Shown: positions 40,936-62,000, counted from the stretch's first letter. The stretch is DNA of 64,000 nucleotides from Blasia pusilla (GCA_050084515.1 CM114271.1:20894001-20958000), one strand, 5' to 3'. Made by a program: numbers and translations. Notes: a model not told the origin generated them from the sequence alone.

Positions 40936-41658
40936 TGTCACATCTGAGTAGCGGATAGGCTGAGATCTATCGTGAATAGTGCATAGGAGCCAGCAGACTA
41001 TCTTGAGTGTAACTTTGTCCCACAGTGTCAAATGAGGTTGAGGATAGGTCCATTGTATCAGGAACATTGTTTTTGATAACTTTCATGTTGAGGTCTTTTA
41101 CAGCCGGATGACTTGTTGACCAGGTCACCCGCCCCTGGTAACCTGTGCGCGCAGGGTACCAAGGGGAGGGCTATTTTTAGGGGTAGAGCCTTTTGGCTCT
41201 TCCCAACCCTATATAAGAGAGGAAGGTGGCTTTCCAAAACTATCTTTCTCATGTTGGGCCGTTGGAGCACCTCCCTTGTATGTGTGTGAGATAGGACTAG
41301 GGTGCTAGCGTTTGGATTCCTTGATAGCACAAGGTGGACGAGGCTCGATATGTCGATGTAGATTGAGGAGTGGAGTTTTAGGCCGAGTGTGCCGTTTTTA
41401 CTACTCTTTATTTTTACATGAGAAAGATGTCAGGGGGCTGGTGGGAATTCGTTGTTTGCAGGTAGGCAAGCGAGTTGCCTTGGTTGGGAGCCCGTGGAGA
41501 CGTTGGTTGGCGTCGTAGTTGTTGTGTGATCTCCATATATATGTATGAGTTGATTTTTGTACATGTGTGGATCGACCCGTGTGTGGGGTAGATCGGTGTT
41601 GTGTGGTGTATATGTGACCAACGATGTAGGTTGTGTAGCGATATGTATGCGCACGACA
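40936..41658 (+). mobile_element. Solo LTR (723 bp) with 4-bp TSD TCCA
   Basis: TGTCAC...GCACGACA flanked by TCCA on both sides; internal TATATAAG at about 41210; last ~40 bp resemble the right end of element B. Confidence 0.7.
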
Positions 41659-44600
41659 TCCACCCTTTGGTTGTCATTGCCGCCATTACGAAGTGGAGGG
41701 TCTTCCACGACCATCGTTGATTCTCTGACTTGCGCTGCCACCACGTACTTTGGTTTGGCCGCCACAGTCATCGCAGTTTCGTCATGAACCAGTGATGGTA
41801 GATGACCTCGGTTATGGTGTTTGAGTTTTGATTTCATGTTGCTATGTTGTGATTGGTAGCCGCTCGACAACGATCGAGTACTGTGCCGTGATGCCCGTAG
41901 CGCCCGTGGGGTCGAGATTTTCAGTTGCTGAGGCGCGACATCGACATGTGTTTAGGTTATCCATTCTGATCTTTTACCCTGCACACGTTAGAAATTTTGG
42001 GATTTGGGTAGTTTATTTGGGGATATTGGGTTGTGTGGATGCTGAGAGCATCATTTATATATGTGGTTTAGGGGACATAGACCTATGTGGGATGTTCGGA
42101 GTTGAGGGTAGGTTATCGATGAGATGATAGCCTGGTCGATTTGCCGCACCACGCCGCTTGTTGCGGCACGCTACACATCTCGGGGAGGGAGAGTGTAGAT
42201 CGAGTGCCGCATGTTTGGGATGAGTGATTGAGGATTACTCATGAGGTTGAGAGTGATCGTGTGAAAGGAGCACAAGGGCCATCACGGCTTCCTTTCAGAA
42301 TTTTGAGAGGCAAGGTAGTGGACATGAGAGTAGCTCTGGAGGGTTTACTAAGAGTGGTGCGAGGTTTCGAGGGTCTCCACGTGAGAAACCACCTCGATCT
42401 CCTTCTGTGTCGTCTTCAGACGAGGGGGAGCGTGTAGAGGAGTGTGTTAATTAGTGATCCACCATACACATTGAGTGGTCCTACCAGTTGGGCGTACGAG
42501 ATGGATGACCGGGGTAGAGGACCACGTAGGTTTTCGGGTGCTGTAGGCACCATGGAGCTACACGACTTCATTGCGGATTTTAGGAGTTGGTGTGACTCAC
42601 AACGGGCTAGGGACTCTAGAGAGTTCAACCCGTTTACAACATGGAACGGTATGTTCCAGCATTTAGAGGGCGTACCCATGGACGATTACCATGAGTTCTC
42701 CCAGAGAGATGCCCAGGAGATTGAGGCATGGCGACTCTACTATGACTCACACTATGTGTCATGGACAAAGCCATTCCCAGATGAGGAGGAGGAGTCAGGA
42801 GAGGCTACTTCCTCTTCCACTAGTGATGTTTTAGAAGGGGTCACTTGCACTGGAGCAGTTGCACTATCTAGTTGGGTTCGTCCCAGGTTCAACCTCATGG
42901 TTGAGATCTTTGCTGAGTTGAGGGCAAGCTACCAGGAGATTACGGACGGAGAGAGGCGCCCCGGTGAGAGTTTGAGTGAGGCTTACACTCGCTTGCGTCG
43001 GTTGATCAAAGTCACTCACGGGGTGACAGAGGCTCAGGCTATCCAGTCATGGTACACGATGCTGGACCGGACCCTGAGGACACGGGTGCGGGAGGGGGTG
43101 CTTCTTATGAACACCTCCCCAACGTTGAGAGGTGTTTTTAGGACCGCCGAGAATATTGAGCGCAACATGGCGGAGGAGAGCGTAGCCACCATGGGTTCTC
43201 GGGCGAGAACGATCCACGATTATCCGCACTACCTGCGGCAAAGAACGTGACTCGAGATAGGTCGACTGTGGCACCATGAGCTCAGGGAGGATACCGGGAG
43301 GCCGTGCCATAGAGACCTGCGCCTTCATATGCGGCTCAACAGAGCCGCCTACTATAACTTGTTGGTCACGTGGTGGAGCCCATCATCAGCGTGATTGCAC
43401 TCGTCAGGATCACAGACGTGTGCCTCAGCATTGAGGAGGAGATGGTGTTGCACCAGGAGGTTATCAATGGGACTATTGTGAGAGGTATGGTCATACACGC
43501 GCCATGTGTTTCATTTTACATCCTGAGTTAAGTCCGGACTAAGGGCTAGAGAGGGCACCAAAGCGAGTAGCCGGTCCAGGTGGGCCTAAAGATTGTGCAC
43601 CAGGTGGTCTCGTTGAGGGACAAGGAGATAGAGTTGCTCGACAGGGTGGTGGAGTTGCCCGTGGAGGAGGTAGAGTCCCACCACCTAGACGCGTCGAGGG
43701 AGATGCCGGGCGTAAGGCTATGATGGCTGGTCAGATACATCAGCTACAGGAACAGATTGCCGCTATGGCATTGAGATTACCTGATTTCGGATCCGTGGCA
43801 TCGACATCATATGGAGCAGCCAGAGATATGGAGGATCCTAGTTGAATATGCGGGGTTGCCTAGATGGAGGAAGCCGCAGTTGTGACGCGTGGAGCAGCCG
43901 GAGAGTTGGATCCACAACGAGGGGAAGCCAGGAAACAGACTAGGCTTCCTCAATCTTTCACGTTGTCCGAGGCGATAAGGACCCCATGGATGGGTCATGA
44001 TCAGAGTTCCTAGAGAGTTGGTGATGTTATTGGTGTGCACGCATAGAGGGCAATGGGAGAAACGAATGCGACGACTCTTATTGTTGATGCTCAAGAGGGG
44101 TATGTGTCGAGCACGTTGTTGGGGGTGGCCACCGTTGTGTACCGCACTCCTTTATTTTCTGCTTCTGATGTTATGACGTTGGGGTGTACGCCCGCCGAGG
44201 CTTTTCGACTAGCCGCTGCACTATGTGAGCATAGAGTTCCAGTTCCTGCATCACGTTCAAAGGTGATTGCAGAGGAGGTGATGGACCTGCCCTTGGAGCG
44301 GATGCTCGGGCCGTCCACGTCAGATTCATGGCAGGCTGCGCTAGGATGGGGGAGATGCCCGCTAGACCCGCGATAGAGCGTGCCATGGATTCTCCTGGTA
44401 TTGTGTTGCTGGATAACCAAGGAGCGGTCTTCTAGTTAGTGAGTCCCGTAGGTAGAGCTTTTAGTCCGCATCGCGTTTTGTTGGATTCAGGAGCGCAACC
44501 CTTGATGTTGGGGAAAGCGTCATTCAGAGGATTGGGCTTGACGAGAGCCAATATGGAGCGTTGTCCATTCCGGATACATACATCCTTGGGTGGAGCGAGT

Positions 44601-45043
44601 ACCACATAGTATATCACCCGATAGGAGGTCGTGGTGAGGATTCGCGCGGGAGATCCTACAGATGAGTCCGTGGTGCGAGCCAAGGCGATAGTGAGTGATG
44701 TAGAGTCCTACGACGTCTTGGTTGGTGGAGCAGTGTTATACCCGATGGGGTTTGCCCTGGATTAGTGGGAGCAATCAGCGTCCTACACACCAAGATGGCA
44801 CTCAGGTGATGGGCGCCTAAGCTCATTACCCGTTCGATTCACAGATGCAATGATGGAGCAACGGCCAGGAGAGATGGCTACCTTAGCAGCATTTAGCAGT
44901 GCCATCACTTGACCTAGTGATTTGATTGAGGGACATGTCCATGCAGAGGATACTCCCGTTCCTGAAATTTCTATGGAGAGGAGTGTTATGGTAGCCGCAT
45001 CATTCTGTGGGGAGAGGTGCCGCTCTGGGGCTCTTGCACTCCT

Positions 45044-45890
45044 ACGTGATGATGTTGCTAGGCGCGTCTCACTACGACATGTGGCGCAATTACGCCTACG
45101 TTTTCCCGACTTATTGTTTGCGTCCGCGGTACAGGGGTACAAGAGTTCCCTACCGAGGGATATTTCGTTGCTGGGGGCGCAGAACTTAGAGCGGGTAGGG
45201 ACCATTGATTTGGTCATTGCCGGTTGGCCATGTCACGGCCAATTGAGTGCTCGACGAGGCAGCGGGTTGGATGACACTCGGTCCAAGTTGTTTTGGGAGA
45301 TGTTGAGGATCTTACGACACTTGCAGGAGCACCTGTCTCATTCTCCAACCTACATTCTGGGGAAATGTGCCGATCTTAGGAGACTCTAGGTCACGGGTGG
45401 TGACAAGTGCTCATCAGGTGCGTGCCTAGATCGGCCCTGCAGTGTTCTTGGATGCGGCGAGTGTAGGTTCTAGAGCCCATCGCCCGCGTCTATGGTGGAG
45501 CAACTTGGTGCCCCATGCGGTGTTACGGAGGGCGTATGCGAGAGTGGAGCGCCCCTCCCATTTGGTAGTGGATTCCATTATGGATCTAGGTCGTCGATCA
45601 TAGGCAGTGAGGCAAGATGATCGACCACCGTTGACTGTGGTCAACAAGGTAGACAGGTCGCAGGAAGCCTTGCCCATGTTTGTGAGTTTACCCGCTTCCT
45701 ATGCATACAAGGAGGCCGGTCGTGGCTTGGTTTGGGATGACCAGGTTCAGTGGTTGGTGGAGCCCAACGCCGACGAGAGAGAGCAAGAAATGGGATTTCC
45801 CACAAGAGTGATGGCAGTACCGTCAGTGTCAGAGGCATCACTACGCCATGTCTTGGGTCAGGCAATGGACGTGAAGTGCTTGACATGGAT
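45044..45890 (+). pseudogene. C5 cytosine methyltransferase (DNMT3-like) domain of element A, motif I deleted
   Basis: DLVIAGWPCHG (IV), frameshifted YILENVP (VI), RAHRPRLWWSNL (VIII), EREQEMGFP (IX), RHVLGQAMD (X). Confidence 0.88.
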
Positions 45891-48800
45891 CCTCCGCTTG
45901 GGAGTGGCTGAGCAATGCCATATGATATCGCGGCAGATCATAGTGGTTGCGTTGGTGAGCCCCATGCCTACCGGGACGGTGGAGGTGGCTGGGGGCGAGA
46001 CCCGAGGAGATCTACACACCAAGGGAGATTGGGAGAGATACCCTTGGACTTCTTGGGATGTTTTGCAGGCACGCCAGGAGATGATAGCCAGAACATCGAG
46101 CGTGGTTTAGGGCACTGCACATGGAGGAGATCAAAGTTTGCAGTTGGCTGCAGGAGAGCGGCCGAGTGTTGTTGTTCGAGACAAGGTTGCACCATAGCAA
46201 CCAAAGATAACCGCACCGGAGAGTCCTACCGTAGTCACGATGGAGACTTGGGAGCCAGATATGGGTCCTAAGTTGACAGGAGGAGAGTGGCGCCGGATAC
46301 GTCAATTCCTCAGGAGTTATAGGAGCTGCTTTGCGTTTAGCATGGAGGATTTGGATATGCTGAAGGGACCGGGGATCCGCATTGAGTTGTCGAGTGATAC
46401 GCCGATCTTCCAACAACCCTACAGGTACAGTGACATGGAGAGGGCTCTGATTCAGAGTAAGAGCCAAGACTTGGTCGGAGCAGGACTAGAGGAGATGTTG
46501 CATGGGAAGTATGCATCTGCCACTGTCATGCCTGCCAAGAAGGATATGCATGGCAACTGGACGGATAGGCGGATGTGTGGGGATTATCGACCTATCAATC
46601 GTCAGACGAAGTCTGCTAGGTATGCCATGCCCACTCCTGAGGAGATCTTTGATCACACAAAGGTCTTTAGTTCATTGGATTTGCAAGCCGGATACCATCA
46701 GCTGCCTATGAGATTGGAGGACAGGCATAAGACAACGTTTTGGGGCATCGATCCTCACGGGAAGGATTGTTTGTATTAGTGGCGGTTCTTACCATTTGGT
46801 TTAAAGAATGCCCCGGATGAGTTTCACAGGGTCATGGATAGGATCTTGGCCGGTCTAGATTTTTCTAGGTGTTATATTGATGATATTGTAGTCTTTAGCG
46901 CGACGGTTGAGGAGCATGAGCGACATCTAGAGGAGGTGTTTCGACGATTCAATTACATGGGCTGAAGCTACATCCAGGCAAGTGGAAGTTCTTCTACGAC
47001 CAGATTGAGTACTTGGGTCATATGATATACCCAGGGGGCCTTGGTGTTCAACAGACGAAGGTAGAGGCTATCTCACGCATTCCACGCCCTACAGATGTGA
47101 GCCTTGTTCGTGCATTCATGGGATTGGCGAACTTCTATCGGCGATACGTTAAGGGATTCAGTTCGATGGCGAAGCCGCTTACCTTGCTGACCAAGGTGGA
47201 TCATGAGTGGCACTGGGAGGATGAGCAAAAGCAAGCATTTCAGTTGCTTAAGGAGAAGTTGACGTCCGCGCCCATCTTGAGGAGACCGATCAGGGGGCGT
47301 CCTTTCCAATTGCACACAGATTGGAGCATGTTGGGGCTTGGAGCGGTGCTCATCCAACATGATGATGAGGGTAGAGAGTTTGTGGTGGCTTACGCTAGCC
47401 GCTCTAACAATGCTGCAGAGGCGAAGTACAACTCGTATGAGGGTGAGTGCTTGGTTGCGATGTGGGATGTCGTGCATTTCAGGTGTTACTTATTCGACAA
47501 CCCCTTTACCATCATCACATTGTTGAAGGAGTATGATTTTCAGGTGGTACATAGACCCGAGACGTTCAACCAGGATGCAGATGGGTTGAGTTGTAACCCA
47601 TGCGCGAGTCAGCGAGATGCGTCTGGAGCTCAATGGCATGGAGAGAGTGATGAGGAGTCAGTGCCAGGATGTCATGCGTCAGCCTATTTAGGCATGTTGG
47701 CTATGGAGAGCCAGAGTGTGGAGACTTCGATGGCAAGGTCTAGTGGAGAGTCCTTGGATCCCGAGGGAGTGAGGAGACGACGGGTGGTCGAGATATTCAT
47801 GATGATGGAGTAGTCTTGGAGTACCTTCGTATTGGAAGCGTTGCGAGCACCGTGGATGCTAGAGAGCAAGATCGGATCCTATAGCAGGCCATATGGTTGT
47901 CATGACCATACGTATTATGTCGTAGAGTATAGTGTGCTAGTAGATGCAGTACCTTATGTAGGGCCATAGTGTCTAGGTAGAGATGCGGTTTCATACATAG
48001 GGTTGGGGGTTACTCTATTGAGGGTTTGGCTCGGTTGTATGTGATTCTATACGTGTTTTATGACAGTAGGTCTTTCACAAATTTCACTTAAAAAATTAAC
48101 GTTGATTGATGGTAGCTTTGATCGTGGTTCAGTAGGATCTGGTTTGGGCTGTTTGTGTACTCAACCGTGGATGTTCGTGGTTTTTGGCCTATATTCGAGG
48201 TGGGAATGTGGTACATGGTTGGTTGGGAAAGAAGCGCCTTGCTAAGAGCTTTCCAACGCGCTTTAGATTGCCGGATTTTGTCAAGGGAGTTAGAAGTTAT
48301 CAAGGATTGAAGATTCTGGTTCGTGTTCGACGGTTCTCTGATGTGGAGAGCTTGGAGTGTGGAAGCTCTGTTGAAGTTCATCCAGATCGGGTGAGAGATT
48401 CTTGTTGCTACCTGTTTTGTGATCTCATGTGAAGCTTTTTGCTTGAGTGTGTGGAGCATTGTGGATTTCGGTGTGCATGAATATGGGCGGAGCGCTCTCG
48501 GATTTGCGATTCTAGAGGTGTATGGACAACAAGTTTGTCTAATTTTTAGCTCAGAGTACAAGGCTCGGTTGTAGTTGATATTTCGTGGAGAGATAGCTAT
48601 GGTGGCCAATTGAATTCTGGTTGAAACAAATTCAATTTTGGTTGAGGATTTTTGGAGTAATTGCTGATCGAAATTTTGCAGACTAGCTCAAGGTCTATGG
48701 TGGACAACAGATCGGAGGGGCTGGTCCGTTGGTGACTCATCCGTTGTTGGAGACACCTATCCCGTTGGGGGCGCCCTGGTTGGGCCTCTCTCCATAATGA

Positions 48801-51800
48801 AGCATGGCGAAGCGTGGCAAACGGGGCATGTCTCGAGCATTTCTCGGCGTTTTGAGGCTTTGAGGCAACTCGTGGTAGCTCGGGGCGAGTGGGCGTGAGA
48901 GGTGGAGTAAGGAGCAAGCAAGAAAGCTTGCTTGCTTGGGCGTGAGGCAGTTTTTGCAGGATTTGTGAGTTGAGTGTTGCATAACTGGTCACCCATCTTT
49001 GGGCTATTCTGCGTGGAGGACGCTTAACTGTTGAGTTTTTAACTATGCCAGTGTACACAGTGGTGTAGCTCATTTGGTGCTATTCGGAGATGTGTTAGGC
49101 GCTTTATGCATCTTGGGTTTTTGGTTGCTGGACCTCTAGCGCATGGTACGGTGTAGCCTCTCCATGCAAGTGATATTTTCAGGTGCTAAGAGTGCAACTA
49201 GCACGTCATCGACCAGCGACGGAGTAGCTATTGCGTTAAATTGTGTGGTGGGTTCTGTGGATTCAGGAGGCGCCACGTTTGGTGGATTATGTTACCTTGA
49301 TTTCCATTTGCGATTGGAGGGTTCTTGTTGGACTTCCTGTGTTTGGATCCCCTCCATCATTGCTTCTTGCTTGCGCGCCCATTGTTAGGGTTGACGCTGA
49401 TTTCGAGATTAGTTTTACTCCTGTGTCCTACCGGTAGTGAGGCTCGAGTGATGACCAGTAGACCGTGGGAGGCTTCTTGTGGTGATGACAGGTTAGGTTA
49501 CCTACACCCATAGCTAGTAGAGATAGAATAGTATAGCGAAATTGACGTCAGTTGGTTGCTTAGTGGTGGTGATTTGGTGGTGGTGCGGCATCGGCGTTGG
49601 TCATCACAGAGAAGTCTGGTGGTCTGGTTGGGGACCGTGGTGCGGACACTGGTGGTTTTACACGGAGTGGATTGAGGTATCGACTACCTTTTCCACTTCC
49701 GACGGTTGATGAAGAGGAGGACGGGGGTGTTCCAAACACTCTGTCTTCTACGTTGTTATCGAGTTTTGCAGCTCCATTCATTGAGTTGGAGGACTTTATT
49801 TGATACGTGGTGTGATATGCAGATGTTGCGGAACGCCACATTGTTTACACCTTCTTGGCTTGGAAGGGGTTGTTTCAGCACTTGGAGGGACCGCCCATGG
49901 ATGATTACCATGAGTTTAGGAGGGACCATGCTGCTAAGATTGAGGCGTGGAGACAATATTGGTCTCCAGGCTATGTGTCTATCATCGATGGTGGTAGTGG
50001 TAGTAGAGCTCTTACTGTGTCAGCCAGCATGATATTGAGTGGTGCGAGTACAAGCCAGAGTGGGATTACCAGTGGAGGTACCCATGGAGGTACTAGTGGA
50101 GGTACTAGTGGCCCACCATCATTCAGCCCGATTGCAGAATTCTTCAAGAGGTTGAGGAAGAACTATCAGGGAGTGAAGATAGAGAAATTGAGGAGTCTTC
50201 AGGAATTTGAGCGAAAGACTGGTGAGAGTCTTCATGAGGCATACACTCGTATGTGATGCTTGATTTCACTTACCCAGGGTGTGACTGAGGCTTAGGCAGT
50301 CCAGTTTTGATATGGGATCTTGGACAGAGAGTTGCACCACAGGGTACGTGATGGTACTGTTATGAGTGATGATTCATCCACATTGGTCCATGTGTTTGCT
50401 CTATCTGAGAAGATTAAGCTTAACATGGTGGAGGAGAGAGTGGTGAAATCCGGATTCAGTAGGGATACAACTACTACTTCTCGTGTTGAGCAGTCCATCT
50501 CACAGTCTCGTAGTAGTGGTGGTGGTAGTAGTAGTGGGAGTCGTGGGGGGTACTCATGACCTCAGTCAGGTCCTAGAGGGACACTTGCGCAGAGACCATT
50601 TCCTTCATTTACTGCCCCGTAGCAAGGACAATCATGTTGGACATGTGGAGGTGATCATGTCAGGAGGTTTTATCCCCAAGAGGATGGGAGACGGACTTTG
50701 GAGGATGAGCCTCAGTCGGCCCCAACTCAGTGTGATCATTGCGGGAGACCAGGTCATCCTCGAGAGCGTTGCTTTGATCTTCATCCTGAGTTGAGATCAG
50801 GCCGCGGACCGTGGTGGAGTAGCTCCAAGAGGCCGAGGTGGTAGGGGTGGTAGAGGTGGACCAGCGGTTGGAGAGCCTACAATGGCTATCCCTACCACTA
50901 CAACAGAGTCAACTATGGCTGCCAGGATTGAGCAGTTGGAGGTGACGTTGGCTACTATGGCTGGTATCCAGCATAGAGCAGGTTTGGGAGCAGGGGCTTC
51001 TACCTCTTATGGAGGGGATGATCTCTCTTATATTGCGAGTGCAACACAGGTTGAGGCATCAGCTGCAGTTACGAGAGGAGCCACGTGGTGCTACTGTGGA
51101 GTTGGACCCACAGAGGGGTGAGGCTGGGAGGCAGGCTAGGCTTCCCCAGTCATTCTTGTTGTCTGAGGTGCTTAGGACTCCATCCATGGTTCCCTCGACC
51201 TATTGAACCTATTGAGCCTCCCAAAGGAAGATTAGTGATTCCCAAAGAGAGAAAGAGGCATCTACATTGTGTGTAGTAGACATGGATGTGCAGTATTGCG
51301 GATGGCAACTTCAGTGTTGGGATCCCCATTGTTTTCAGCCACTAAGTTGATGGCCTTAGGAGTTGACTTAGCTCCTGTATTTCAGCTAGCACTCACGTTG
51401 TGTGAACGTGGGAGTGTTGCTGGTACACGTGCTGAGGTGGATGAGGGTGTTGTGATGGAGCGACCCTCTATATCAGGTGTAGCATTGAGTACCAGTGCTA
51501 CTTGGCAAGCAGCAGCCGCGAAGATTGATGCATTACCAGCCCGGCCAGCCATTGATCGTGAGAGGCTTACACTTGGTGTATGTATGTTGGACAACCGCAG
51601 TGGGATATTCCGATTGGTGAGTCCTACAGGACAGGTATATAGACGAGATAGAGTCTTGTTAGACTCTGGTGCCCAACCTTTGATGTTGGGAAAGGTGGCA
51701 AGTATTGGTTTGGGTATTCGGAGGTCAGAGCTTGAGCCTTGCCCATTCTAGATTCAAACATCACTTGGAGGAGCCAATGATAGGTCTCAATTCATGACAC

Positions 51801-52382
51801 GGGAGAAGTTGTCTGTAGAGTTGAGACCAGATCATGCGACTAATAGCTCCCAGTTGGGAGTACATGCAGTGGTCACATCAACTGAGTCGTATGATATACT
51901 AGTTGGAGGAGTAGTATTGTACCCGATGGGTTTTCAGATGGACTACTGGATTGAGACAACGTCTTATAGACCTGGTTGGCAGTCCGGGGATGGACGTTCC
52001 TATGAGATTTATTTATGGGGCTCGACTAGGAGGGTCTTCCCCAACAGTGTTAGCATCTGTGGCTGGTTTTAGTGGAGTAGTCACTTGGCCAGGAGACTTT
52101 TTGGAGGGTAATCTTTTTGCTATGGATTCTCCTGTGCATAAGGAGGTAGAGGAGGTCCCTAGTTTTGCAGCAGTGGCATCCTCATCGTTGGATGTGCCAC
52201 TTTGGAGTTCACGCGGTGCATTACGGCAGGAGGCTGATCGCCTAGTGCAGGAGGCTTGGTGTGAGGCTTTTATACCTCACGAGGAAGAGGAGGCCCCACG
52301 GCGGACTCCTACTTCTGGTCCAGTTGGGTTATCCGGATCCCCTTTGGATACTACACTCATTGTATGGCAGTATCCGCCAGAG

Positions 52383-53325
52383 GGCATTTGTGTGTTAGAT
52401 CTCTTTGGTGGGTTTAGCATTGGTTTGGCTGAAGTGTTGCAAGCCGGTATTCCTATGCGGAGATACGTGTATGTGGAGCGAGATGAGACGACCCAGAGAG
52501 TCTCATCCCGACATATTGGTCAGTTGATGCGGAGATATCCTAAGTTGTTGCGGCCATCAACTATTCGTGGGTACCAGCGTGCTTTGCCGTCACACATTGC
52601 ATTGTTGGGGGCGCAGGAGCTTGAGAGGGTTGGTCCTGTGGATTTGGTGATTGCTAGATGGCCATGTCAGGGTCATACACGTGCTGGTCGTGGTGAGGGA
52701 TTACACAACCCTAGGTCTCGATTGTTTTGGGAGATGTTACGGGTGTTACGACATCTTCAGGTTCATCAAGCACGTGCTCCAGCTTACATTCTGGAGAATG
52801 TTCCATTGTTGGATGACACTCGGATCCAGATGATGGCGAGTGTTCATGAGGTGTGGTCTTGGATTGGACCAGCGGTGTTGTTGGATGCAGCGCGAGTTGG
52901 CTCGCGTGCACATCATCCACGCTTGTGGTGGACAAACTTGTTGCCTAGGGAGGTTCTACGTCAAGCATATGATGCAGTGCAGCGGGATCCTTGCCTTGCA
53001 GCGGATAGTATCTTGGATACTTGGCAACTTTCTCAAGTGGTGAGGGTTATTGATCGGTCACCCATGGCAGTGGTGAATCGTGTGGGCCAGCCTAGGATGG
53101 CACTACCCACATTTGTGAGTTTTCCCTCGTCACATGCCTACAGGAAAGGTGGTCCCGGTCTTGTATGGGATTCTCATGTGCGACAGTTGGTGGATCCTAA
53201 CGCTGATGAGAGAGAGAGAGCGTGTGATGGGATTTGCTACTGGTGTGATAGCGGTTGCTTCCATTTCAGAGGCTTCACGACGTCATGTGTTGGGTCAGGC
53301 CATGGACCTGAATTGTTTGACCTAG
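52383..53325 (+). pseudogene. C5 cytosine methyltransferase (DNMT3-like) domain of element B
   Basis: Motifs in canonical order: VLDLFGG (I), YVERD (II), DLVIARWPCQG (IV, catalytic Cys), YILENVP (VI), RAHHPRLWWTNL (VIII), ERERVMGF (IX, after a frameshift in a GA run), RRHVLGQAMD (X). Confidence 0.93.
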
Positions 53326-56300
53326 ATTATGAGTCTTGGTATGGCCGAGCAGTGTCGACTTCCGACTATGTCGATGGGTCTTCCACCCCTTGTGATGAGC
53401 TCGATGGCTATCGGGACGGTAGAGACATCGGCTGGGGGCAAGGAGAATAGTATTTTGCATCCTTGGAGTAAATGGGATGTAATGGCTAGGCATGTGGAGT
53501 TGGTTGCTCATGCTGGTGGAGAAGTTTTTTGCTCAGATGATGGTGTAGCTAAGGGTGTACCATCTTGTGAGGGGGTTGCATAGCAGCCAATGGTGTCATC
53601 CTCTCCCTCTAGTGTGCGAGTGGAGGAGACTTGGGAGCCATTACTTGGGCCCAAGCTTACGGGAGGTGAGAAACGACGCTTGACACAATTCCTACGTGCT
53701 TATAGGAGTTGTTTTGCCTTTAGCATGAAGAAGTTGGGTGCTTTGGTTGGACCCGGTATACGGATTGATTTGGCTAGTGATTCGCCAATCTTCCGTCGTC
53801 CCTACCGATATAGTGATATGGAGAGGGACCTGATTCAGAGTAGGACGTTGGACCTTTTGGAGGCTAGATTAGTGGAGTTGTCGCATGGAGAGTATGCATC
53901 AGCCACTGTCATGCTTGCTAAAAAGGATATGCATGGCAACTACACGGATATGCGGATGTGTGGAGATTAGCATCCTATCAATCGATAGACCAAGGCCAAT
54001 AGGTATGCCATGCCTACACCTGAGGAGATCTTTGATGTGGTGGGATAGGCAAAGATTTTCAGTACTTTGGATCTTTGGGCAGGATACCATCAGTTGACGA
54101 TTCGAGAGATTGACAAGGCCAAGACAACATTTTGGGGTGTCAACTCTCATGGCAAGGATTGTTTGTACCAGTGGAAATTATTACTCTTAGGGTTGAAGAA
54201 TGCACCTGCCGAGTTTCAGAGAGTGATGGACAGGATCCTAGCATGGTTGGATTTTGATCGGTGTTACATTGATGATATCTTGGTGTTCAGTAACACGGTG
54301 GAGGAGCATCAGATACATTTGGAGATTGTGTTTGAGCCGTTGAAAGCTCGTGGTCTACGTTTGCATCTAGGAAAGTGTAAGTTCTTCCATGAGGATGTTG
54401 AGTACTTGGGTCATAGGATCTATCCAGGTGGTTTGGAAGTTCAGCAAGCAAAGGTGGAGGCTATTGCACTTATTCCTCGTCCGATAGATGTGAGTAGAGT
54501 TCGCGCATTCATGGGATTGGCGAACTACTATCGGAGGTATGTGAAGGGATTTAGTGCTATGGAAAAGCCTTTTTACCAATTGTTGAAATCAGATCAGGAG
54601 TGGCATTGGGGAGATGATCAAGAGAGAGCTTCTGTGGAGCTGAAGGCCCAGTTGGTGGCGGCGCCTATCTTAAGGAGACCTATCAGAGGGCGCCCATTTC
54701 AGTTACATATTGATTAGAGTAGGTTGGGACTTGGAGCGGTGTTGACACAACATGATGATGAGCACATGGAATTTGTGGTGGCCTATGCTAGTCGTTCGAA
54801 TAAAGCAGCGGAGTCTCGCTATAGTTCATATGAGGGAGAGTGCTTGGCAAGAGTAGTGTGGGCTGTGGCACACTTTAGGTGTTACTTGTTTGGCACACAC
54901 TTTATCCTTGTTATTGATCACCAGCCGCTCAAGTGGTTGATGGAGTCTGACAAGCTTACATGGAAGCTTGCATGGTGGGCTCTTCTCTTACAGGAGTATG
55001 ACTTCCAGGTGGTACATAGACCTGGAGTTGCCAACCTTGATGCTGATGGGTTGAGTAGGAACCCATGTACTAGCCAAGAGGATGCAACTGGGGCTAGATG
55101 GCATGGCGAGGTTGATGAGGAGACGGTGCCAGGTTGGCATGCATCTGCCTTTTTATGTTGGTTAGGGGTGGACTCTAGTATGGAGGACCACATGACATCT
55201 TACTCTAGTCAGAGGGTAGATGGCCAGTCTTCAGATCCTAAGGTTGGAGATGGTGGTACGGATCAACGTGATATTCATGATGATGCGTTGGTGTTGGAGT
55301 TCTACGGACTAGTAGGGTGCCACGCATAGTGAGTGCCAAGGAGCAAGACCGTGTTCTTCAACGTGCTAAGAGGTATCCATTGGAGGGAACACATATTCTC
55401 CGTATGTGGGAGGATGGTAGAGTACGAGTAGTGCCGCATTTGGCTCAGAGAGAGCGCATTGTGCGACATGCCCATGAGGAGTTGGGAAATTTTGGGGTAA
55501 AGTGTACGTATAGCTTACTCCTTGGTCACTATTGGTGGCGTGGCATGCATACTCAGGTGCAGCAGTTGGTGTCATGTTGTTTGGTTTGTGACCGGGTGAG
55601 GGCATCATTCAATGCCCCTATACCACAGTTACATCCCTTTCCTATTATGGGGTTGGGTTACCGTTGGAGTGTGGACTTTGTGGACCGTTACCGTTGATTG
55701 TACGATATCATTGATATGTGTTGGTGATGGTGGAGCACTTCTCCAAGTGGATTGAGTTGGGGGCATTACCTGACAAGGCAAGTGAGGGAAGGGCATATGT
55801 ATTTCTTGATAGAGTGCTTAGTCATTTTGGTGCACCACCTGAGATGTTGACCGATGAGGGTATAGAGTTTCAGGGTGAGTTTCAGTTCTTGTGTGACAAG
55901 GTGTTGATTGGTCATCGGACCACGTCTCGAGATCATCCAGAGGCGGATGGTTTGGCTGAGCGTGTGGTTCAGACGGTGAAGAGGGCATTGTGCAAGTATG
56001 GCCTAAAGAAGGGGCATCTTGGAGACTGGGATATTCAGTTGCCATGGTTATCCATGGGGTATAGGTTCAGTTGTCATGGTTAGCCATGGGATATAGGTTT
56101 AGTCGCCAAGCATCCTTGGCTTCCTTCTCACCTTATTTTCTGTTATACGGCCGAGATCCAAACTTGCAAGCAGCAATTTGTTAGGAGTCCTATAAGGTGG
56201 TGAACCTTGAAGACCCAAAGATGTGGATGAGAGTGTGTTTTCAGCGGGCAGAGCTCTTTCGGAGAGTTATGCCAACAGCCTTTGAGAATCTTGCCATTGC

Positions 56301-56599
56301 TCAACACAGGGATACGTTGCGGTATGCAACCATTCAGGGTGGAGGTTATTGACCATCGATTTGTAGGTTCCATGTGGGGGACTATATCTATTTGCAGCAT
56401 ATTGCACTCACAACGTTGGATGTGATGGCAAGCCGCACTATTTTACGAGTACGCGAGGTGTTAGCTTCTGGAGTTCTCATGTTGGAGGGTCGTGATGGAG
56501 TTGTTTGGAAGAACCATGTGCGTAATTGTGCGCGATGTCATCTTCCAAATGTGGATGGTATTGTTGACCCAAGCTTAACCATGATACGTGCTAGTTTGA

Positions 56600-56740
56600 G
56601 GTGTATGTTGTGTGGGTCTGCTAGTAACACAACTCGTATGTTGGTGTGTGATTGGTGTTCTAGGGGTTGGCACATGATGTGTTTGACTCCACGTATGGAT
56701 GTTGTTCCTACTGGAAGGGGGATTTTTCCTCGATGTTCTT
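56600..56740 (+). other. PHD finger at the integrase C-terminus of element B
   Basis: CMLC...MLVCDWCSRGWHMMCLTP..VPTG..F PRC: C4HC3 pattern with one Cys decayed to F. Confidence 0.85.
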
Positions 56741-57805
56741 AGGAGGGGTAGATGACTTGATCTTTGCATGATATGGATTACAGATGTGCGACTAACGATG
56801 GGGCAACCTAGCACCCAACCTTCTGATTCGTGCACCCACGAAGGTGTATGGCATGTAGTAGATGTATAGGGCTACCTGGGAGTTAGAGGGACCTAACCGC
56901 CAGTAAGGGGGGGGCGAGTTGTGGTACACTTATGTTTGTGGATGCTCTCGTCTATGTTATGTATGTAGGTGAGTATGGTATGTCAACGATGTATGTTGTA
57001 TGACGATGTGGATTCGCCCGAAAGCTATCATGACCATACGGATTATGTCGTAGAGTATGGTGTGCTAGTAGAGGCCATACCTTATGTAGGGCCGTAGTCT
57101 CTAGGTAGAGATGCGGTTTCATACATAGGATTGGGGGTTATTCCGTTGAGGGTGACTTTTCCAGTAGGGCCCACTCTTAGGTTGGAGCATATAGTGTGGA
57201 GTGCACTCAAAGAACTGTTAGTTCTTTGAGTTGAGCCTGTTGCGTTGGGAGTTAGCCTTGGTAGTGAGTAGAGCTCTTGGCTATGGTGGTTCCCGCAAGC
57301 TTTGACCTAGATTCTCCCATCGTGGAGTGGGTTTGGCTTGATTGTAGGTGATTCTATACGTATTTTATGACAATAGATCTTTCATGGATTTCGAGTTGTG
57401 GTACACTTGTGTTTACGAATGCTCTCGTCTATGTTATGTATGTAGGTGAGTATGGTATGTCAGCGATGTATGTTGTATGACGATGTGGATTCGCACGACA
57501 CGGTTTGTTGGGAGGGGACACATGTTTTGAGGGTTTGGGAGGATGGTAGAGTACGCGTAGTGCTGCATCCTTCGCAAAGAACATGACTAGTGCAACATAC
57601 CCATGAGTAGTTGGATCACTTTGGGATGAAGCAGACGTATAACTTGCTCCAGATTCAGTATTGGTGGTGAGGCATGCAGACAGACGTTCAGCTAGTTTGT
57701 TGCTAGGTGCATGGTGTGTGATCGGGTCAGAGACTCCACAGTTGCATCCATAACGGATCATGAGCTTAGGGTATAGATGGAGTTTGGATTTTGCTGGACC
57801 TTTGC

Positions 57806-58826
57806 TGTCGCGACCCTCATAACCAAACAACACCAAATACGCGCCAAGCGAAACATCAAAACTCAAAGGAACTCACGCCGCGAGATTTGCGCTTTGGAGA
57901 GGCGTTTGGAAGAGTCTCTTGGAAAAGCCTAAGAGACGAAACGTGGGACAGAGTTGTGCGTTTCATGTGTTAGTGGTCACAACCAGGAAACCTAGACCAA
58001 ACGCGAGCCGAGACTTGAGATGAGTTGAGTCTTGAGGTTGGTTGCCAAAGAGGTGAGAACCAGTTTGGAACACGACTAGCGTTTGGGAGAATCTGTCTGT
58101 GTTTAGGACCATAACGTTGAGCTCCAAGATGCGTTTGGGACAAGTAAGGGCGCGTTGGAAAGCTGATCTCAAGATGCTTCCAACGCATCAAAGATAGTAG
58201 CAAACGCATAAGTACAGGCTGAGATATTGGCCGAAAACGATTCAAAGAGCAATCGGGTTGAGGGCCAATTGGAGAGGCCAGGTGTCTTTCCTAAATGGGA
58301 GGCCCCGGAGATCCCCAGAAGTACTAGTAAGGGGAGTACCTTCTCTGAGATGTCTCGGGAAACAAACCCCACTTTGGGCGCCAACGGCGTTTTAGAGGCA
58401 CGGATGAAACGGGAGTTTGCGCGAAACCCAAACCCAAACCTGATCCAAGGGAGTGGACTTTGTACGCCACACTTGGATTCCAATCCGAGATTCACTTTGT
58501 GCGAGTCTTGGTGAGGAACTCATTGGATGTTCATCGGACAGTTGGAACCGCTAGGCGCGAAATGCCGTTTCAGGTTCCTGAACCGACCAGAAAGTCTGTC
58601 CCAAGTCTTTCGAGACTTGCCCGTGTTGGAAACCGCGAAACTAGGAAGGATGAGCTTGAAGAGAGAGTCCGAGACGAGAACTCGGAAAGTAATCCCGCTG
58701 ATTGATCCAAGACCCGACTAACCAAAGTGCGTGTTTGGATGCAGATCAGCGTTGAGAGCGTGACCTACTGAACGCACGCTTCCGCAACAAACAAGATTAA
58801 CGTTCAAGGAGAGTAGGCGCACGAAA
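57806..58826 (-). mobile_element. Solo LTR (1021 bp) of another family inserted in the integrase of A, 5-bp TSD TTTGC
   Basis: TTTGC|TGTCGCGACCC...GCGCACGAAA|TTTGC; removing it restores GPLPLTKRHSRYVLVMVEHFSKW. Orientation inferred from the minus-strand end GGGTCGCGACA. Confidence 0.85.
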
Positions 58827-59040
58827 TTTGCCTTTGACAAAGCGTCACAGTCGTTATGTGTTGGTGATGGTCGAGCACTTCTCGAAGTGGATCGAGTTGG
58901 TTGCATTGCCTGACAAAGTGATTGAGGGAATAGCATATGCCTTCCTAGACCGAGTGTTGAGTCATTTCCGCGCACCGGCAGAGGTTTTGACAGACTAGGG
59001 TACCAAGTTTCGTTATGAGTTCCGGGCCAAAATATCTCTT

Positions 59041-62000
59041 ATCGCCCCCCTTGCTGGTGGTTAGGTCCCTCTAACTCTAGATAGCCATCTATCCCTACCT
59101 ACCACGTCCCACTCCCTCAACTGTCCCCACTGCAAGCCATACTTGCGCAATCCTCTCTTCATCGTCTGTACCACTCTCTCCGCGAACCCATCCGCCTCAG
59201 GATGATCTCTGGATGTGGTGTGGTGATCTATCAACGCGTGATCACACAAGGCCTAAAACTCTCCCCTAAACTCAATACCCTGGTCAGTCCACACCTCCGC
59301 CGGTGCACCAAAGTGACTAAGCACACGATCTAGAAACACATAAGCTGTTCCCTTGCTCGCCTTGTCTGGTAGTGCCACCAACTCTATTCACTTGGAGAAA
59401 TGCTCCACCATGACCAACACGTACCTATGATGACGCCCTGTCAATGGCAAAGGTCCCGCAAAGTCTAAACTTCACCGATAACCTAAACCCATAATAGGCA
59501 ACGGATGTAACTGCGGAGTGGGAGCATTGAAGGATGCTTACACTCTGTCACATACCATACATCGGGCCACAAATTGCTGTATCCCAGTATGCATGCCGCA
59601 CCACCAATACTGAACATGGAGTAAGCTGTAAGTACGCTTTATTCCAAAATGTCCCAACTCCTCATGGGCATGTCGCACTACACGTGCTTCTGGGAAGGAT
59701 GAGGTACCACTTATATCCTACCATCTCCCCATACCCACAAAATGTGAGTCCCCTCCCACCTGAACCTCCTGGCTCTCTGTAGGATCCAATCCCGCTCCCT
59801 AGCACTCACTGTACTTGCTATGGCGCCAATGCGCAAGAACTCCACAATCTCCACGTCGTCATGGATATCATGACCACCCATCGCCTCCTCACTATCCTCC
59901 GGATCCAAAGACTCATCATCCAACCTCACTAGTGGAGTCATCACCTGTGGTTGACCTGCCATAATCAACCAACAAAGATAGGCAGATGCATTCCAACCGG
60001 GCACCATCTCCTCATCACTCTCTCCGTGCCATCGAGCTCCGGTGTCGTCTCTCTGACTCGGATATGGGTTACGACTCAGCCCATCCGCATCCTGGTTTAG
60101 CCAACCTGGCCTATGAACCACCTCAAACTCATACTCCTGTAGTAATAGAGCCCACCTGGCAAGCTTTCCCGTAAGCTTGTCGGACTCCATCAACCACCTC
60201 AATGGCTAATGATCAATGATAAGCGTGAAAGGGTTGCCGAATAAATAGCACTTGAAATGTGCCACGGCCCACACTTCAGCCAAGAACTCTCCCTTGTAGG
60301 AGCTCTACTTCACCTCTGCAATGTTGTTCGATCTGCTCGCGTAAGCCACAACGAACTCCCTCTCCTCATCCCCCGAGTAAGCACCGCTCCTAGACCCAAC
60401 ATGCTCCAATCCGTATGTAATCGAATGGGCGACCCCTAACGGTCTCTGTAAAATGGGTGAGGACGTCAACTGTCCTTGAGCTCTGAAATGCTCGCTCCTG
60501 ATCATCTCCCCACAACCAAACCTGATCAAGTCTCGTCAACAAGGTCAAAGACTTTGCGATCGCACTAAAACCCTTGACATACCATCGATAGAAGTTTTCC
60601 AGTCCAAGAAATGCTTAGACTCGACTCACATCTGTAGGACATGGAATCTCCGCAATAGCCTCTACCTTTGTCTGCTGAACGCCTAACCCACTCGGATATA
60701 TGGTGTGTCCCAAGTACTCAATCTGCTCCTGAAAGAATTTGCACTTGCCATGATGTAACTTCAGTCCATGAAACTGCAATCGCCAAAACACCTCCTCCAA
60801 GTGTCGCTCATGCTCCTCAACCCTGGAACTGAAGATAAGAATATCATCTATGTAACATCGTACAAAATCTAAGCCAGCCAAAATCCTATCCATCACTCTT
60901 TGAAACTCTGCAGGCGCGTTCTTCAACCCAAATGGTAAGAACCGCCACTAATACAAGCAATCTCTCCCAAACCGATCTATCCCCCAGAATGCTGTCTTCT
61001 CCCTGGCCTCCAACCTGATAGGAAGCTGATGATAGCCAGCACGGAGATCTAAAGTCTTGAAGATCTTTGCATGCCCTACCGCATCAAAGATCTCCTCAGA
61101 GAGTAGGCATGGCGATCGATCGACCTCGCCAAATGGTCGGTTGATAGGACGGTAATCTCCACACATCCGCCTATCCGTCCAATTGCCATACATATCCTTC
61201 TTCGCCAGCATGACTGTGGCAGATGCATACTCCGCATGTGATAACTCCACAAGTCTTGACTCCTGCTCTGAATCAAGGCCCGCTCCATATCAGAATACGT
61301 GTAGGATCGACAAAAGATCGGCGTATCACTAGCCAACTCAATCCGTATCCCGGGACCCTTCAACGTATCCAAGTCTCTCATACTGAAGGCAAAACAACTG
61401 ACATGCCCTCTGAGAAACCTATGAACTCACCGTCGCTCTCCTCCTATCAACTTGAGACCTATCACAGGCTCCCAAGTCTCCATCATGATCTCACTCGGAG
61501 AGGACGCAACCTCCGGCTTTGGTTGCTATGTAGCAACCCTAGCCACCTCCGCAACAGCCACTCCACTATGACCTCCTACACCATGCTCCACATCCGAAAA
61601 ATGAACATGTGCTTCTCTAGCCGCCTTCGCACTCTCTGCTCAAACGACGTCCCAGGAAGTCCATGGGTGCCTATCTCTCCTCGCTCTTGCCCAGCCAATG
61701 CTTGTAGAGACCTTGTAGGCAGTGGTCCAACTCGTGGACGTGACGGCATGGATGACACTCGCATCCGTCTCTACTCAGCCATACCTAGGCTGACTATCCA
61801 TGTGAGATAGTTGAGGTCCTTCGCCTGCCCCAACACGTGTCTCCGTGATGCCTCAGTCATCCGTGGCACCGCCGTAGAACCGATAGTGAACCCCATGGCG
61901 CGCTCACGCTCATATGCTGTAGGCTCCTCCAATGCGCCGGTCACCTCATCCCAAATCATGTGTGGCCCTCCGTGACGAAAAGCATGGGATGCTGGGAAGC

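Follow-up and report, generated by a model that had tools for sequence, protein, structure and literature searches.

Nested retroelements in the Blasia pusilla window

The analyzed window, a 64,000-nucleotide stretch of Blasia pusilla DNA (GCA_050084515.1, CM114271.1:20894001-20958000), contains three copies of a retroelement that carries a DNA methyltransferase (DNMT), here named elements A, B and C. Element B is nested in the older copy A, the sequence of which picks up again without loss on the far side of B. When the end motifs of B were used to look for the termini of the other two elements, matches were obtained only at B's own ends. Features are listed below, with domains abbreviated as PR (protease), RT (reverse transcriptase), RH (RNase H) and IN (integrase).

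42501-47897, + strand: left part of element A, covering gag through RNase H; the copy is older, has diverged from B (72-78% nucleotide identity) and is interrupted by it
47894-47897, no strand: left target-site duplication TGGT; right copy CGGT at 57501-57504, 3/4 bases matching
47898-57500, + strand: element B, the whole DNMT-carrying Gypsy-type retroelement (9603 bp); both ends located
49762-50802, + strand: gag region; tblastn to Marchantia proteins P0001/P0002, 56-57% identity; 7 in-frame stops
51290-52009, + strand: aspartic protease region; tblastn to Marchantia proteins, 56-68% identity; 1 stop
52383-53325, + strand: DNMT3-like C5 cytosine methyltransferase, motifs I-X in canonical order; from Pfam, profile and fold; one frame change near 53222
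53581-53589, + strand: conserved in-frame stop in read-through-type context, TAG CAG CCA; divides ORF1 (gag-PR-DNMT) from ORF2 (RT-RH-IN-PHD)
53632-55302, + strand: reverse transcriptase and RNase H; Pfam RVT_1 2.2e-24, RT_RNaseH 2e-27; 4 stops
55425-56077, + strand: integrase, comprising a zinc-binding H2C2 domain and a DDE (rve) core that lie in two frames; Pfam Integrase_H2C2 2.3e-13, rve 6.4e-8
56602-56742, + strand: C-terminal PHD finger of the integrase region; Pfam PHD 5.8e-7
57501-59025, + strand: right part of element A (integrase), truncated within the integrase core
59103-63993, - strand: element C, third copy, running off the window end; truncated within the integrase core

The limits proposed for element B in the original prediction were exact, with TGTCATGACC as the first bases at 47898 and GCACGACA as the last at 57500. 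Between them lie gag (CCHC), a DSG protease, an unpermuted C5 methyltransferase, RT, RNase H, a DDE integrase and a C-terminal PHD finger. The order PR-RT-RH-IN together with a DDE integrase, here represented by Pfam RVT_1, RT_RNaseH, Integrase_H2C2 and rve in sequence, defines Ty3/Gypsy elements and agrees with the predicted Gypsy assignment. Short motifs mark the individual domains, comprising a gag zinc knuckle (CDHCGRPGHPRERC, 50731-50772), the protease motif LLDSGA (51656-51673), read straight from the translation, and YIDD in the RT (54265-54276). Pfam gave no match on the gag fragments tested and assigned no family to the protease ORF of element B; in the protease of relatives, Asp_protease_2 matched weakly, under its curated cut-off. 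For the PHD finger, the best solved relative was the ATXR5 PHD domain (7.9e-9), and the nearest solved domains were those of ATXR5, DPF2/3, KDM5 and BAZ2A, which read unmodified H3K4. This finger was present in window copy B and in 16 of 27 relatives scanned.

Element B is a dead, decayed copy: over its 11 homologous segments, it has 19 stops in frame and shifts frame 8 times. Elements A and C are dead as well. The DNMT of element A (45033-46071) reads WPCHG but has lost ENV, now ILGKC, and that of element C (61672-62910) contains stops and WLCQG, in which the catalytic proline is lost.

The ends of element B are built from two repeats, A and B, and a polypurine run:

47898-48085, + strand: terminal repeat A1; matches A2 at 91% identity over 126 nt and at 86% over 64 nt
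56902-56914, + strand: polypurine run AGTAAGGGGGGGG, immediately 5' of B1
56915-57021, + strand: repeat B1; 94% identical to B2 over 107 nt
57026-57392, + strand: repeat A2, copy of A1, from repeat comparison
57392-57500, + strand: repeat B2, the 3' terminus, from repeat comparison

Two identical LTRs are not present; repeat A stands alone at the 5' end and B-A-B at the 3' end, so that the termini are direct repeats of the split type and not canonical LTRs. Repeat A2 has ~175 nt more than A1, and the B1/A2 junction joins the 3' end and the 5' end of the element head to tail. Among six metagenome loci checked for repeats, two (L026 and L065) have the same A1...B1-A2-B2 arrangement as element B, with an equivalent polypurine run ahead of B1, three have none and L011 has other repeats. 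Using the same end definition as for element B, perfect 4-bp target duplications flank L026 (TCTC/TCTC) and L065 (AATC/AATC). Family end sequences read TG(T/A)TCATGACC ... GCAC(G/A)ACA, that is, TG...CA ends. By eye, no TGG-type primer-binding site was seen after A1 in three elements. The A1...B1-A2-B2 layout with its internal junction of both termini is shared with DIRS/PAT/Ngaro-type elements. Those elements, however, rely on a tyrosine recombinase and insert without duplicating the target, whereas the present family encodes a DDE integrase and shows both TG...CA ends and duplications of 4 bp; by Pfam, neither copy B nor the intact relative L053 contains a tyrosine recombinase, and rve and Integrase_H2C2 were found instead. 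The combination of split-repeat termini with a DDE integrase poses a separate replication puzzle.

A methyltransferase domain related to DNMT3

The original prediction had placed a full, unpermuted set of C5 methyltransferase motifs at 52383-53325, between protease and RT. Both the set and its position were recovered, with LLDSGA upstream, RVT_1 downstream and motifs I-X in canonical order, as read from the translation of element B:

52395-52412, + strand: motif I, LDLFGG
52464-52484, + strand: motif II, YVYVERD
52659-52673, + strand: motif IV, WPCQG
52788-52802, + strand: motif VI, ILENV
52905-52931, + strand: motif VIII, RAHHPRLWW
53218-53235, + strand: motif IX, ERVMGF, readable only past one frame change near 53222
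53278-53301, + strand: motif X, RRHVLGQA

Copy B thus retains motifs I, IV (PC), VI (ENV), VIII (RxR), IX and X in order, the last two past the frame change. Pfam bore out the C5 methyltransferase call: on the ORF at 51915-53450, PF00145 scored 28.3 bits, above its curated cut-off of 22 (E 1.6e-6), in an alignment covering just profile positions 62-117 of 324, and in intact L053 it scored 51.1 bits.

The predicted DNMT3 likeness also held. Used as a single sequence, the domain of element B had DNMT3A as its best PDB match (E 6e-7). A profile of 41 relatives ranked DNMT3A first among PDB entries (E 8e-28), followed by DNMT3B/C (~1e-25), DRM (3e-15), M.HhaI (7e-9) and DNMT2 (2e-3); no chain of DNMT1 reached E<=0.01. 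The DNMT3A alignment comprised three collinear stretches corresponding to motifs I-II, IV-VIII and IX-X. In the profile search, the first non-transposon matches were DNMT3 proteins of ants (E 2e-19 and 3e-16). An AlphaFold model of the relative P0192, 78% identical to B, had a pLDDT of 92, and all 32 Foldseek matches listed for it (ranks 1-46) were DNMT3A/B/C, with target-normalized TM values of 0.80-0.85 against DNMT3 chains consisting of the catalytic domain only. By sequence profile and predicted fold, the methyltransferase is therefore nearest to DNMT3A/B/C. A homodimer prediction with two copies of P0192 residues 40-368 scored 0.00 and carries no weight either way. Pfam found neither PWWP nor ADD in the ORFs of copy B or its relatives.

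The Gypsy-DNMT3 family and its in-frame stop

The DNMT domain is carried at the same place by all three window copies, and the layout PR-DNMT-RT-RH-IN is common to these copies and L053. An exhaustive DNMT search returned 1867 matches at E<=1e-3, of which 138 passed the stricter E<=1e-30, and 84 of 290 candidate metagenome stretches encode a DNMT. Named relatives come from four bryophyte genera (Marchantia, Riccia, Calypogeia and Sphagnum) and from Closterium. Open frames of at least 500 aa are absent from all three window copies and from 75 of 80 metagenome loci. In intact L053, ORF1 encodes PR and DNMT and ORF2 encodes RT-RH-IN-PHD; PR is joined to DNMT in one open frame in L053 and P0025, and Marchantia P0004 and P0011 join DNMT with RVT and RNase H. 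Marchantia polymorpha is a genetically tractable model with many gene models of the Gypsy-DNMT3 family, and the function of the domain is thus directly testable there.

The catalytic motifs FGG, PC, ENV and RxR as well as motifs IX and X are retained in family members. Pairwise dN/dS among the window copies was 0.13-0.20 for DNMT and 0.10-0.14 for RT, rough values given a saturated dS of 1.4-2.5. For the metagenome, 26 DNMT segments were examined and 21 with stops dropped, leaving five stop-free copies that provided three usable pairs, with DNMT dN/dS of 0.12-0.22. The domain is a family trait that has been under purifying selection, and not a one-off capture.

Three RNA-seq runs with the same species label as the window constitute the expression evidence. 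Each yielded 1014-1163 reads at a depth of up to 77, covering the DNMT region, with the first mate nearly always on the minus strand, that is, from sense transcripts. The reads were 95-99% alike to B, and just 4-12 per run reached >=99%; being not identical to B, they come from sibling copies. Loose read ends occurred at 57028 and 57500. The Gypsy-DNMT3 family is abundant and transcribed, with its closest relatives in liverworts and mosses. CpG observed/expected ratios were 0.57-0.74 in the elements and 0.52 in flanking DNA, not lower in the elements and uninformative on self-methylation.

Between DNMT and RT, all 38 copies found share an in-frame stop at one position, which intact L053 also has. 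In element A it reads TAG CAA CCA at 46195, and in element C TAG CAA CCA at 61526-61528. The codon after the stop is CAA or CAG in 36 of the 38 copies, the stop itself is TAA, not TAG, in 13, and most metagenome copies continue with CAA CCC, not a strict YYA. Strict TAG-CAR-YYA occurs in all three window copies, L031, L070, L071 and L053. UAG-CAR-YYA is a type of programmed stop-codon read-through motif known from plant viruses. In the tblastn alignment, Marchantia P0001 has its C-terminal end at 53580, an ORF end at the stop position. The Closterium-type proteins P0058 and P0342 have DNMT and RT in one open frame, and the stop is thus not universal. Because it separates gag-PR-DNMT from RT-RH-IN-PHD, the DNMT is probably made at the level of Gag, with the leaky stop downstream of it. 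The original prediction had assigned the domain to the pol region; it does lie between protease and RT, but the conserved in-frame UAG groups it with gag-PR, apart from RT-RH-IN. Such a leaky-stop layout predicts that the methyltransferase is made with Gag and not with RT or integrase, limiting what the enzyme can be for.

Possible roles and relation to known systems

DNMT-carrying retrotransposons are parasites that encode the enzyme class that normally silences them. As correctly noted in the original prediction, de Mendoza et al. 2018 (Nat Commun 9:1341; PMC5890265) describe them, in the article text, from dinoflagellates and the charophyte Klebsormidium nitens. In that text, KnitGypsy-Dnmt3 has an unrearranged Dnmt3-type domain inside a Gypsy-type coding region; its repeat structure is equated with that of a DIRS retrotransposon, and its domain composition is called Gypsy. 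The sole published activity test, of the K. nitens domain in yeast, detected no methylation and was called inconclusive by its authors because human DNMT3B failed too (PMC5890265). Marchantia, Physcomitrella and Sphagnum are not mentioned in the main text of this article, and an opinion paper states that DNMT-carrying transposons are absent from land plants (PMC6338049). Full-text searches yielded no land-plant description of Gypsy-DNMT3; the supplements of PMC5890265 and of a 2025 MBE survey (PMC12344493) may list bryophyte copies, in which case the finding would be less new. The kind of element is already published as KnitGypsy-Dnmt3, so that our data extend its host range and do not define a new class. 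Known in plants from a single charophyte alga, such elements are abundant, diverse and transcribed in liverworts and mosses, which brings the question of their function into land plants.

We regard it as fairly probable that element B is a dead member of Gypsy-DNMT3, a Ty3/Gypsy-type family of streptophytes in which a DNMT3-derived catalytic domain is a selected coding part. In the proposed mechanism, the UAG-CAR-YYA context, judged from its sequence, would permit occasional read-through, with Gag-PR-DNMT as the abundant and Gag-PR-DNMT-RT-RH-IN-PHD as the rare product. The protease would then free the DNMT inside or beside the particle. As a predicted active de novo C5 methyltransferase, the DNMT could mark the element's own cDNA or new insertion, and the copy would be already methylated on entering chromatin, for self-limitation or camouflage. 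The PHD finger of the integrase may steer insertion to silent, H3K4-unmethylated chromatin, for example, other transposons. Particle packaging and cDNA methylation, both already suggested in the original prediction, are inferences. A more far-reaching version appears improbable to us. In this version, the family is alive in bryophytes, the Gag-level DNMT is active de novo and places 5mC on cDNA and, in trans, on host DNA, and DIRS-like end regeneration through the B/A junction precedes PHD-guided DDE integration. If true, the family would be an unrecognized contributor to liverwort and moss methylomes, and its replication a true hybrid.

Alternatively, the domain might act on the host, either by methylating host DNA in trans or by titrating DNMT3/DRM partners as a DNMT3L-type regulator or decoy, thereby blunting or redirecting silencing. 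Its position upstream of the leaky stop predicts high expression, the K. nitens domain showed no activity in yeast and the 2018 authors discuss effects on the host methylome (PMC5890265). A pure scaffold, however, needs none of the PC, ENV, RxR and FGG motifs, which are kept across family members under purifying selection, and we consider a host-directed role rather unlikely. Methylation of RNA (genomic RNA or primer tRNA) in the manner of DNMT2 seems more doubtful still, given that DNMT2/tRNA methyltransferases matched far more weakly than DNMT3A (E 2e-3 versus 8e-28) and that the fold matches listed were all DNA-bound DNMT3 enzymes. This is despite a motif set common to DNMT2, the lack of DNA activity seen for the K. 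nitens domain in yeast and the same idea having been raised by the 2018 authors for another retrotransposon DNMT (PMC5890265).

Capture of a host DNMT3 fragment as a single event, which the original prediction had named as the finding that would speak against it, or an assembly or nesting artefact would fit a region that is a nest of broken transposons, with 19 stops in B. Either is hardly credible and already contradicted: three copies with saturated synonymous divergence and DNMT dN/dS of 0.13-0.20 carry the domain at the same place, and it is present in many relatives. Single open frames join PR to DNMT (L053, P0025) or DNMT to RT (P0058, P0342), and the domain is encoded by the 84 metagenome stretches and by named homologs in four bryophyte genera. 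A family-borne, DNMT3-derived enzyme, selected as part of the element, remains our preferred reading.

Among cellular enzymes, animal DNMT3A/3B/3C and plant DNMT3 provide the best sequence and fold match and share motif order I-X, catalytic PC, ENV and RxR. Identity to DNMT3A is just 20-23% in the fold alignment, and the element domain differs from cellular DNMT3 in its longer motif VIII-IX stretch, in lacking PWWP and ADD by Pfam and in being embedded in a retroelement. Plant DRM is related in its catalytic fold (the profile matches the structure of tobacco DRM at E 3e-15) but is circularly permuted, and its motif I-IV part alone aligns, whereas the element domain is collinear with DNMT3A.

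Compared by published description, KnitGypsy-Dnmt3 resembles element B in having a Dnmt3 domain in Gypsy order and DIRS-like repeats, and the DNMT is under purifying selection in both, with Ka/Ks < 0.2 in KnitGypsy-Dnmt3 and 0.13-0.20 in the window copies (PMC5890265). The hosts differ, our named relatives being from liverworts, mosses and a zygnematophyte; K. nitens proteins did not appear by name among the homology-search and cluster matches. The UAG between DNMT and RT, the 4-bp duplications and the PHD finger are not described in the passages of PMC5890265 on KnitGypsy-Dnmt3, in which 'PHD' and 'protease' have no matches.

Gene models from the green algae Scenedesmus, Chromochloris, Haematococcus and Cymbomonas show a rearranged layout, RT-RH-DNMT-IN-PHD. 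These elements share a homologous DNMT (33-40% identity), a DDE integrase and a C-terminal PHD finger with the B. pusilla element but carry the DNMT after RNase H, whereas it precedes RT in B. pusilla. All 27 RT-before-DNMT sequences fell on one side of a DNMT-tree branch with SH-aLRT 90; the tree came from a quick LG+G4 search, with SH-aLRT as its sole support measure. It used 64 of 353 domain matches (all named, all DNMT-before-RT and 22 random RT-before-DNMT); with two ant DNMT3 sequences, spanning half of the columns, as its only outgroup, it cannot tell the origin of the domain. Chromoviruses likewise have a chromatin-reader module C-terminal to the integrase, which is a chromodomain there and a PHD finger here.

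Domain architecture and copies in the window

The original prediction placed a Gypsy-type retroelement with its own DNA methyltransferase (DNMT) at 47898-57500, and these boundaries were exact, with the end sequences TGTCATGACC and GCACGACA located at 47898 and 57500, respectively. ORF scanning and Pfam searches of this 9,603-bp element, termed copy B, resolved a coding span at 49.7-56.8 kb on the plus strand that begins with a gag-like region; five of the 11 scanned ORFs lacked any Pfam family. Using tblastn with Marchantia proteins, we located three copies in the window.

Domains of copy B (in order) and copies in the window
51656-51673, plus strand: LLDSGA motif of the aspartic protease ORF, seen in translation, no Pfam match
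51915-53450, plus strand: DNMT ORF, 511-aa open frame, PF00145 (C-5 cytosine methylase)
plus strand: RVT_1 (Pfam E = 2.2e-24)
plus strand: RT_RNaseH (Pfam E = 2e-27)
plus strand: Integrase_H2C2 (Pfam E = 2.3e-13)
plus strand: rve (Pfam E = 6.4e-8)
plus strand: PHD finger at the integrase end (Pfam E = 5.8e-7)
42501-47897 and 57501-59025, plus strand: copy A
47898-57500, plus strand: copy B, inserted into copy A
63993 down to 59103, minus strand: copy C, running past the window end and truncated in the integrase core

The DNMT ORF matched PF00145 above the cut-off (28.3 versus 22 bits, E = 1.6e-6), with only profile positions 62-117 aligned. Catalytic motifs are conserved as a full C5-methyltransferase set whose order is canonical: I, II, IV (WPCQG), VI (ILENV) and VIII share one frame, while IX (ERVMGF) and X (RRHVLGQA) lie beyond one frame change near 53222. 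Motif coordinates and domain order agree on an unpermuted methyltransferase between protease and reverse transcriptase (RT), as predicted. The closest solved relatives of the PHD finger are the PHD domains of ATXR5, DPF2/3, KDM5 and BAZ2A. Copy B itself is dead, carrying 19 stops and eight frame changes (11 homologous segments).

Copy A resumes across the copy B insertion without loss of sequence. Its DNMT has lost ENV (now ILGKC), and that of copy C contains stops and WLCQG. The DNMT occupies the same position in all three copies and is a family trait, not an acquisition by one copy. It has evolved under purifying selection, dN/dS between window copies being 0.13-0.20 in the DNMT, compared with 0.10-0.14 in RT/RNase H; saturation of synonymous sites (dS 1.4-2.5) makes these values rough.

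Copies A (58819-59025, plus) and C (59103-59672, minus) face each other ~80 bp apart, each breaking off within the integrase core at almost identical residues; this inverted juxtaposition could have arisen by rearrangement involving two copies, or be a join made in assembly. All three elements carry a marked excess of G over C on their sense strand (GC skew between +0.17 and +0.30 across A and B within 40001-58000; -0.07 to -0.24 over the opposite-strand C within 58001-64000). Elsewhere in the window, an unrelated RT fragment (8978-9427, minus; RVT_1, 2.9e-8) marks another retroelement remnant upstream, and a MINDY-3/4 deubiquitinase domain (6069-6881, minus; 1.3e-33) and a Myb/SANT-like DNA-binding domain ORF (35985-36644, plus; 1e-8) are likely host gene pieces.

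DNMT3 affinity and relatives

Searched alone against solved structures, the 280-aa domain matched DNMT3A best (E = 6e-7), followed by DRM (1.5e-3), with bacterial enzymes and DNMT2 above 0.01. A profile built from 41 relatives gave 8e-28 for DNMT3A, values near 1e-25 for DNMT3B/3C, 3e-15 for tobacco DRM, 7e-9 for M.HhaI and 2e-3 for DNMT2; no DNMT1 chain was found at E ≤ 0.01. DNMT3A aligned to this profile in three collinear stretches (I-II, IV-VIII and IX-X), and the domain is therefore unpermuted, unlike the permuted DRM. For P0192, an intact relative sharing 78% identity with copy B, AlphaFold gave a model with a mean pLDDT of 92.2. Among the Foldseek matches to the PDB listed for it (32 rows, ranks 1-46), all were DNMT3A, 3B or 3C, with a top E near 1e-19 and target-normalised TM scores of 0.80-0.85 for catalytic-domain-only chains and lower for longer ones. 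Profile ranking, collinearity and fold thus bear out a DNMT3-like domain that is not in DRM order; the feature is real and was read correctly. When long proteins were searched with a profile, the highest-ranking matches from outside transposons were two ant DNMT3 proteins (2e-19 and 3e-16). Whereas cellular DNMT3 enzymes have PWWP and ADD domains, Pfam detected neither beside the catalytic domain in copy B or the relatives' ORFs.

A word-indexed search of longer proteins returned 37 matches, the best (74% identical) from Marchantia polymorpha, Calypogeia fissa and Sphagnum and weaker ones from the green algae Chromochloris and Haematococcus. Proteins of near length gave 150 matches, the 120 listed including Marchantia paleacea, Riccia sorocarpa, Sphagnum troendelagicum and S. 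tenellum. Exhaustive searching of 1.84 billion representatives yielded 1,867 matches at E ≤ 1e-3, of which 564 reached 1e-10 and 138 reached 1e-30, and many lie inside proteins of 1,000-3,000 aa; clusters of relatives include Closterium and Scenedesmus. Pfam scans and a BLAST-based count revealed two layouts among stored proteins with both domains: DNMT before RT (n = 12) and RT-RH before DNMT (n = 79), the latter usually followed by integrase and PHD finger. Some green-algal RT-RH-DNMT-IN-PHD polyproteins carry extra domains: a G-patch between DNMT and integrase (P0035 and P0117) and a PTM/DIR17-like Tudor domain after the PHD finger (P0067).

For phylogeny, we computed a quick maximum-likelihood tree (LG+G4, SH-aLRT support only) from 64 selected rows, with the two ant DNMT3 rows as outgroup; the domain's origin lies beyond its reach. 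Window copies B and C fell into a 17-row clade (support 100) with Marchantia, Calypogeia, Sphagnum and further rows, outside a subclade of the seven Marchantia rows (100); this placement suggests a bryophyte source for the window. The sister clade stands at ~46% identity, Closterium and further rows form a separate clade, and all 27 RT-before-DNMT rows lie on one side of a branch (support 90).

Related metagenome loci (L001-L080) are mostly decayed, 75 of 80 having no ORF of at least 500 aa. Many changes in their DNMT segments appear to be of the Arg-to-Trp/Cys/His or stop type, as expected from methylated-CpG deamination.

The stop between DNMT and RT, and transcription

The motif X frame ends at TAG, followed by CAG CCA in copy B and CAA CCA in copies A and C, and in all three ORF2 starts after this stop in the same frame. 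In the intact metagenome locus L053, ORF1 (1,369 aa, protease and DNMT) and ORF2 (1,047 aa, RT-RH-IN-PHD) share a frame and are divided by TAG CAG TTA. A conserved ORF2 N-terminal motif, sought in all 80 metagenome loci and on either strand of the window, recovered 38 copies. All 38 have a stop at this position (TAG in 25, TAA in 13), and CAA or CAG follows in 36. The Marchantia protein P0001 ends where copy B has its last codon before the stop. UAG-CAR-YYA is the classic leaky-stop context of tobamoviruses, and copies A, B, C and L053 carry TAG CAR YYA, for which read-through is predicted. The conserved position, the CAR codon, the P0001 terminus and this context suggest a gag-PR-DNMT / leaky UAG / RT-RH-IN-PHD layout. 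Closterium-type relatives have no stop between DNMT and RT.

Three RNA-seq runs, sharing their species label with the best-matching DNA run, were mapped on 47500-57900. Each placed 1,014-1,163 reads, nearly all 95-99% alike to copy B and only 4-12 per run reaching 99%, at depths up to 77 (1-40 over DNMT bins). First mates were almost always on the minus strand, which denotes sense RNA in most stranded libraries. The reads differ consistently from copy B and lack 32 nt at 56068-56101, the site of a frame change in B (30-49 reads per run); they therefore derive from transcribed sibling copies, not B. Other reads join 55231 to 56270, in two of three runs with nine other letters between, which suggests a transcribed, internally deleted derivative without most of the integrase. 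DNA-run depth over copy B was extreme, fitting a highly repeated family.

Proposed function, termini and known elements

We propose that read-through of the leaky UAG between DNMT and RT would yield the full polyprotein, that the protease may release the DNMT, that this enzyme could methylate cDNA of the element itself or its freshly inserted copy, and that the PHD finger may guide where the element integrates. For this lineage a single activity test has been published, with the Klebsormidium nitens domain in yeast; it gave no methylation, and its authors judged it inconclusive since human DNMT3B failed as well. CG methylation was obtained with dinoflagellate DIRS-Dnmt3 domains (de Mendoza et al. 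2018, PMC5890265). That the domain acts on the host in trans, or serves as a decoy, is an unlikely alternative to methylation of the element's own DNA, and methylation of RNA is more improbable still. A one-off capture or artefact has next to no probability and is effectively excluded by a DNMT at the same place in three copies with saturated dS.

DNMT-carrying Gypsy elements are already published (de Mendoza et al. 2018, PMC5890265), in the paper named by the original prediction, and a 2026 preprint refers to 'streptophytes (Gypsy-DNMT3)' (10.64898/2026.05.21.726589). One opinion paper (PMC6338049) holds that land plants lack such transposons. Full-text literature searches yielded no bryophyte description, nor did the accessible text of PMC8616336, PMC6453930, PMC10952607, PMC11982613, PMC12513842 and PMC9985172; a mention is possible in most subscription journals and supplements, which lie outside this scope. 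The kind of element is known; within the literature covered, its host range and anatomical detail are new.

Terminal features of copy B
47898-48085, plus strand: repeat A1, 5' end
before B1, plus strand: polypurine run, 3' region
56915-57021, plus strand: repeat B1, 3' region
57026-57392, plus strand: repeat A2, 3' region
57392-57500, plus strand: repeat B2, 3' end
57021-57028: B1|A2 junction (L026, ~10494-10499; L065, ~11900-11904)

Six metagenome loci were examined for this repeat plan: two (L026 and L065) share it, three have no repeats and one has other repeats. Elements end in TG...CA and are flanked by target duplications (TCTC, AATC; TGGT/CGGT in the window). The B1|A2 junction consists of the element's 3' end, 2 nt and the 5' end, is palindromic in L026 (GACAATTGTC) and looks like a circle junction kept within the element. 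It coexists with a DDE integrase and target duplications. The published K. nitens element KnitGypsy-Dnmt3 has DIRS-type repeats with Gypsy domains (de Mendoza et al. 2018, Fig. 4c legend, PMC5890265), a plan matched by copy B, L026 and L065, and the present family combines DIRS-like repeats with clear hallmarks of a DDE integrase.
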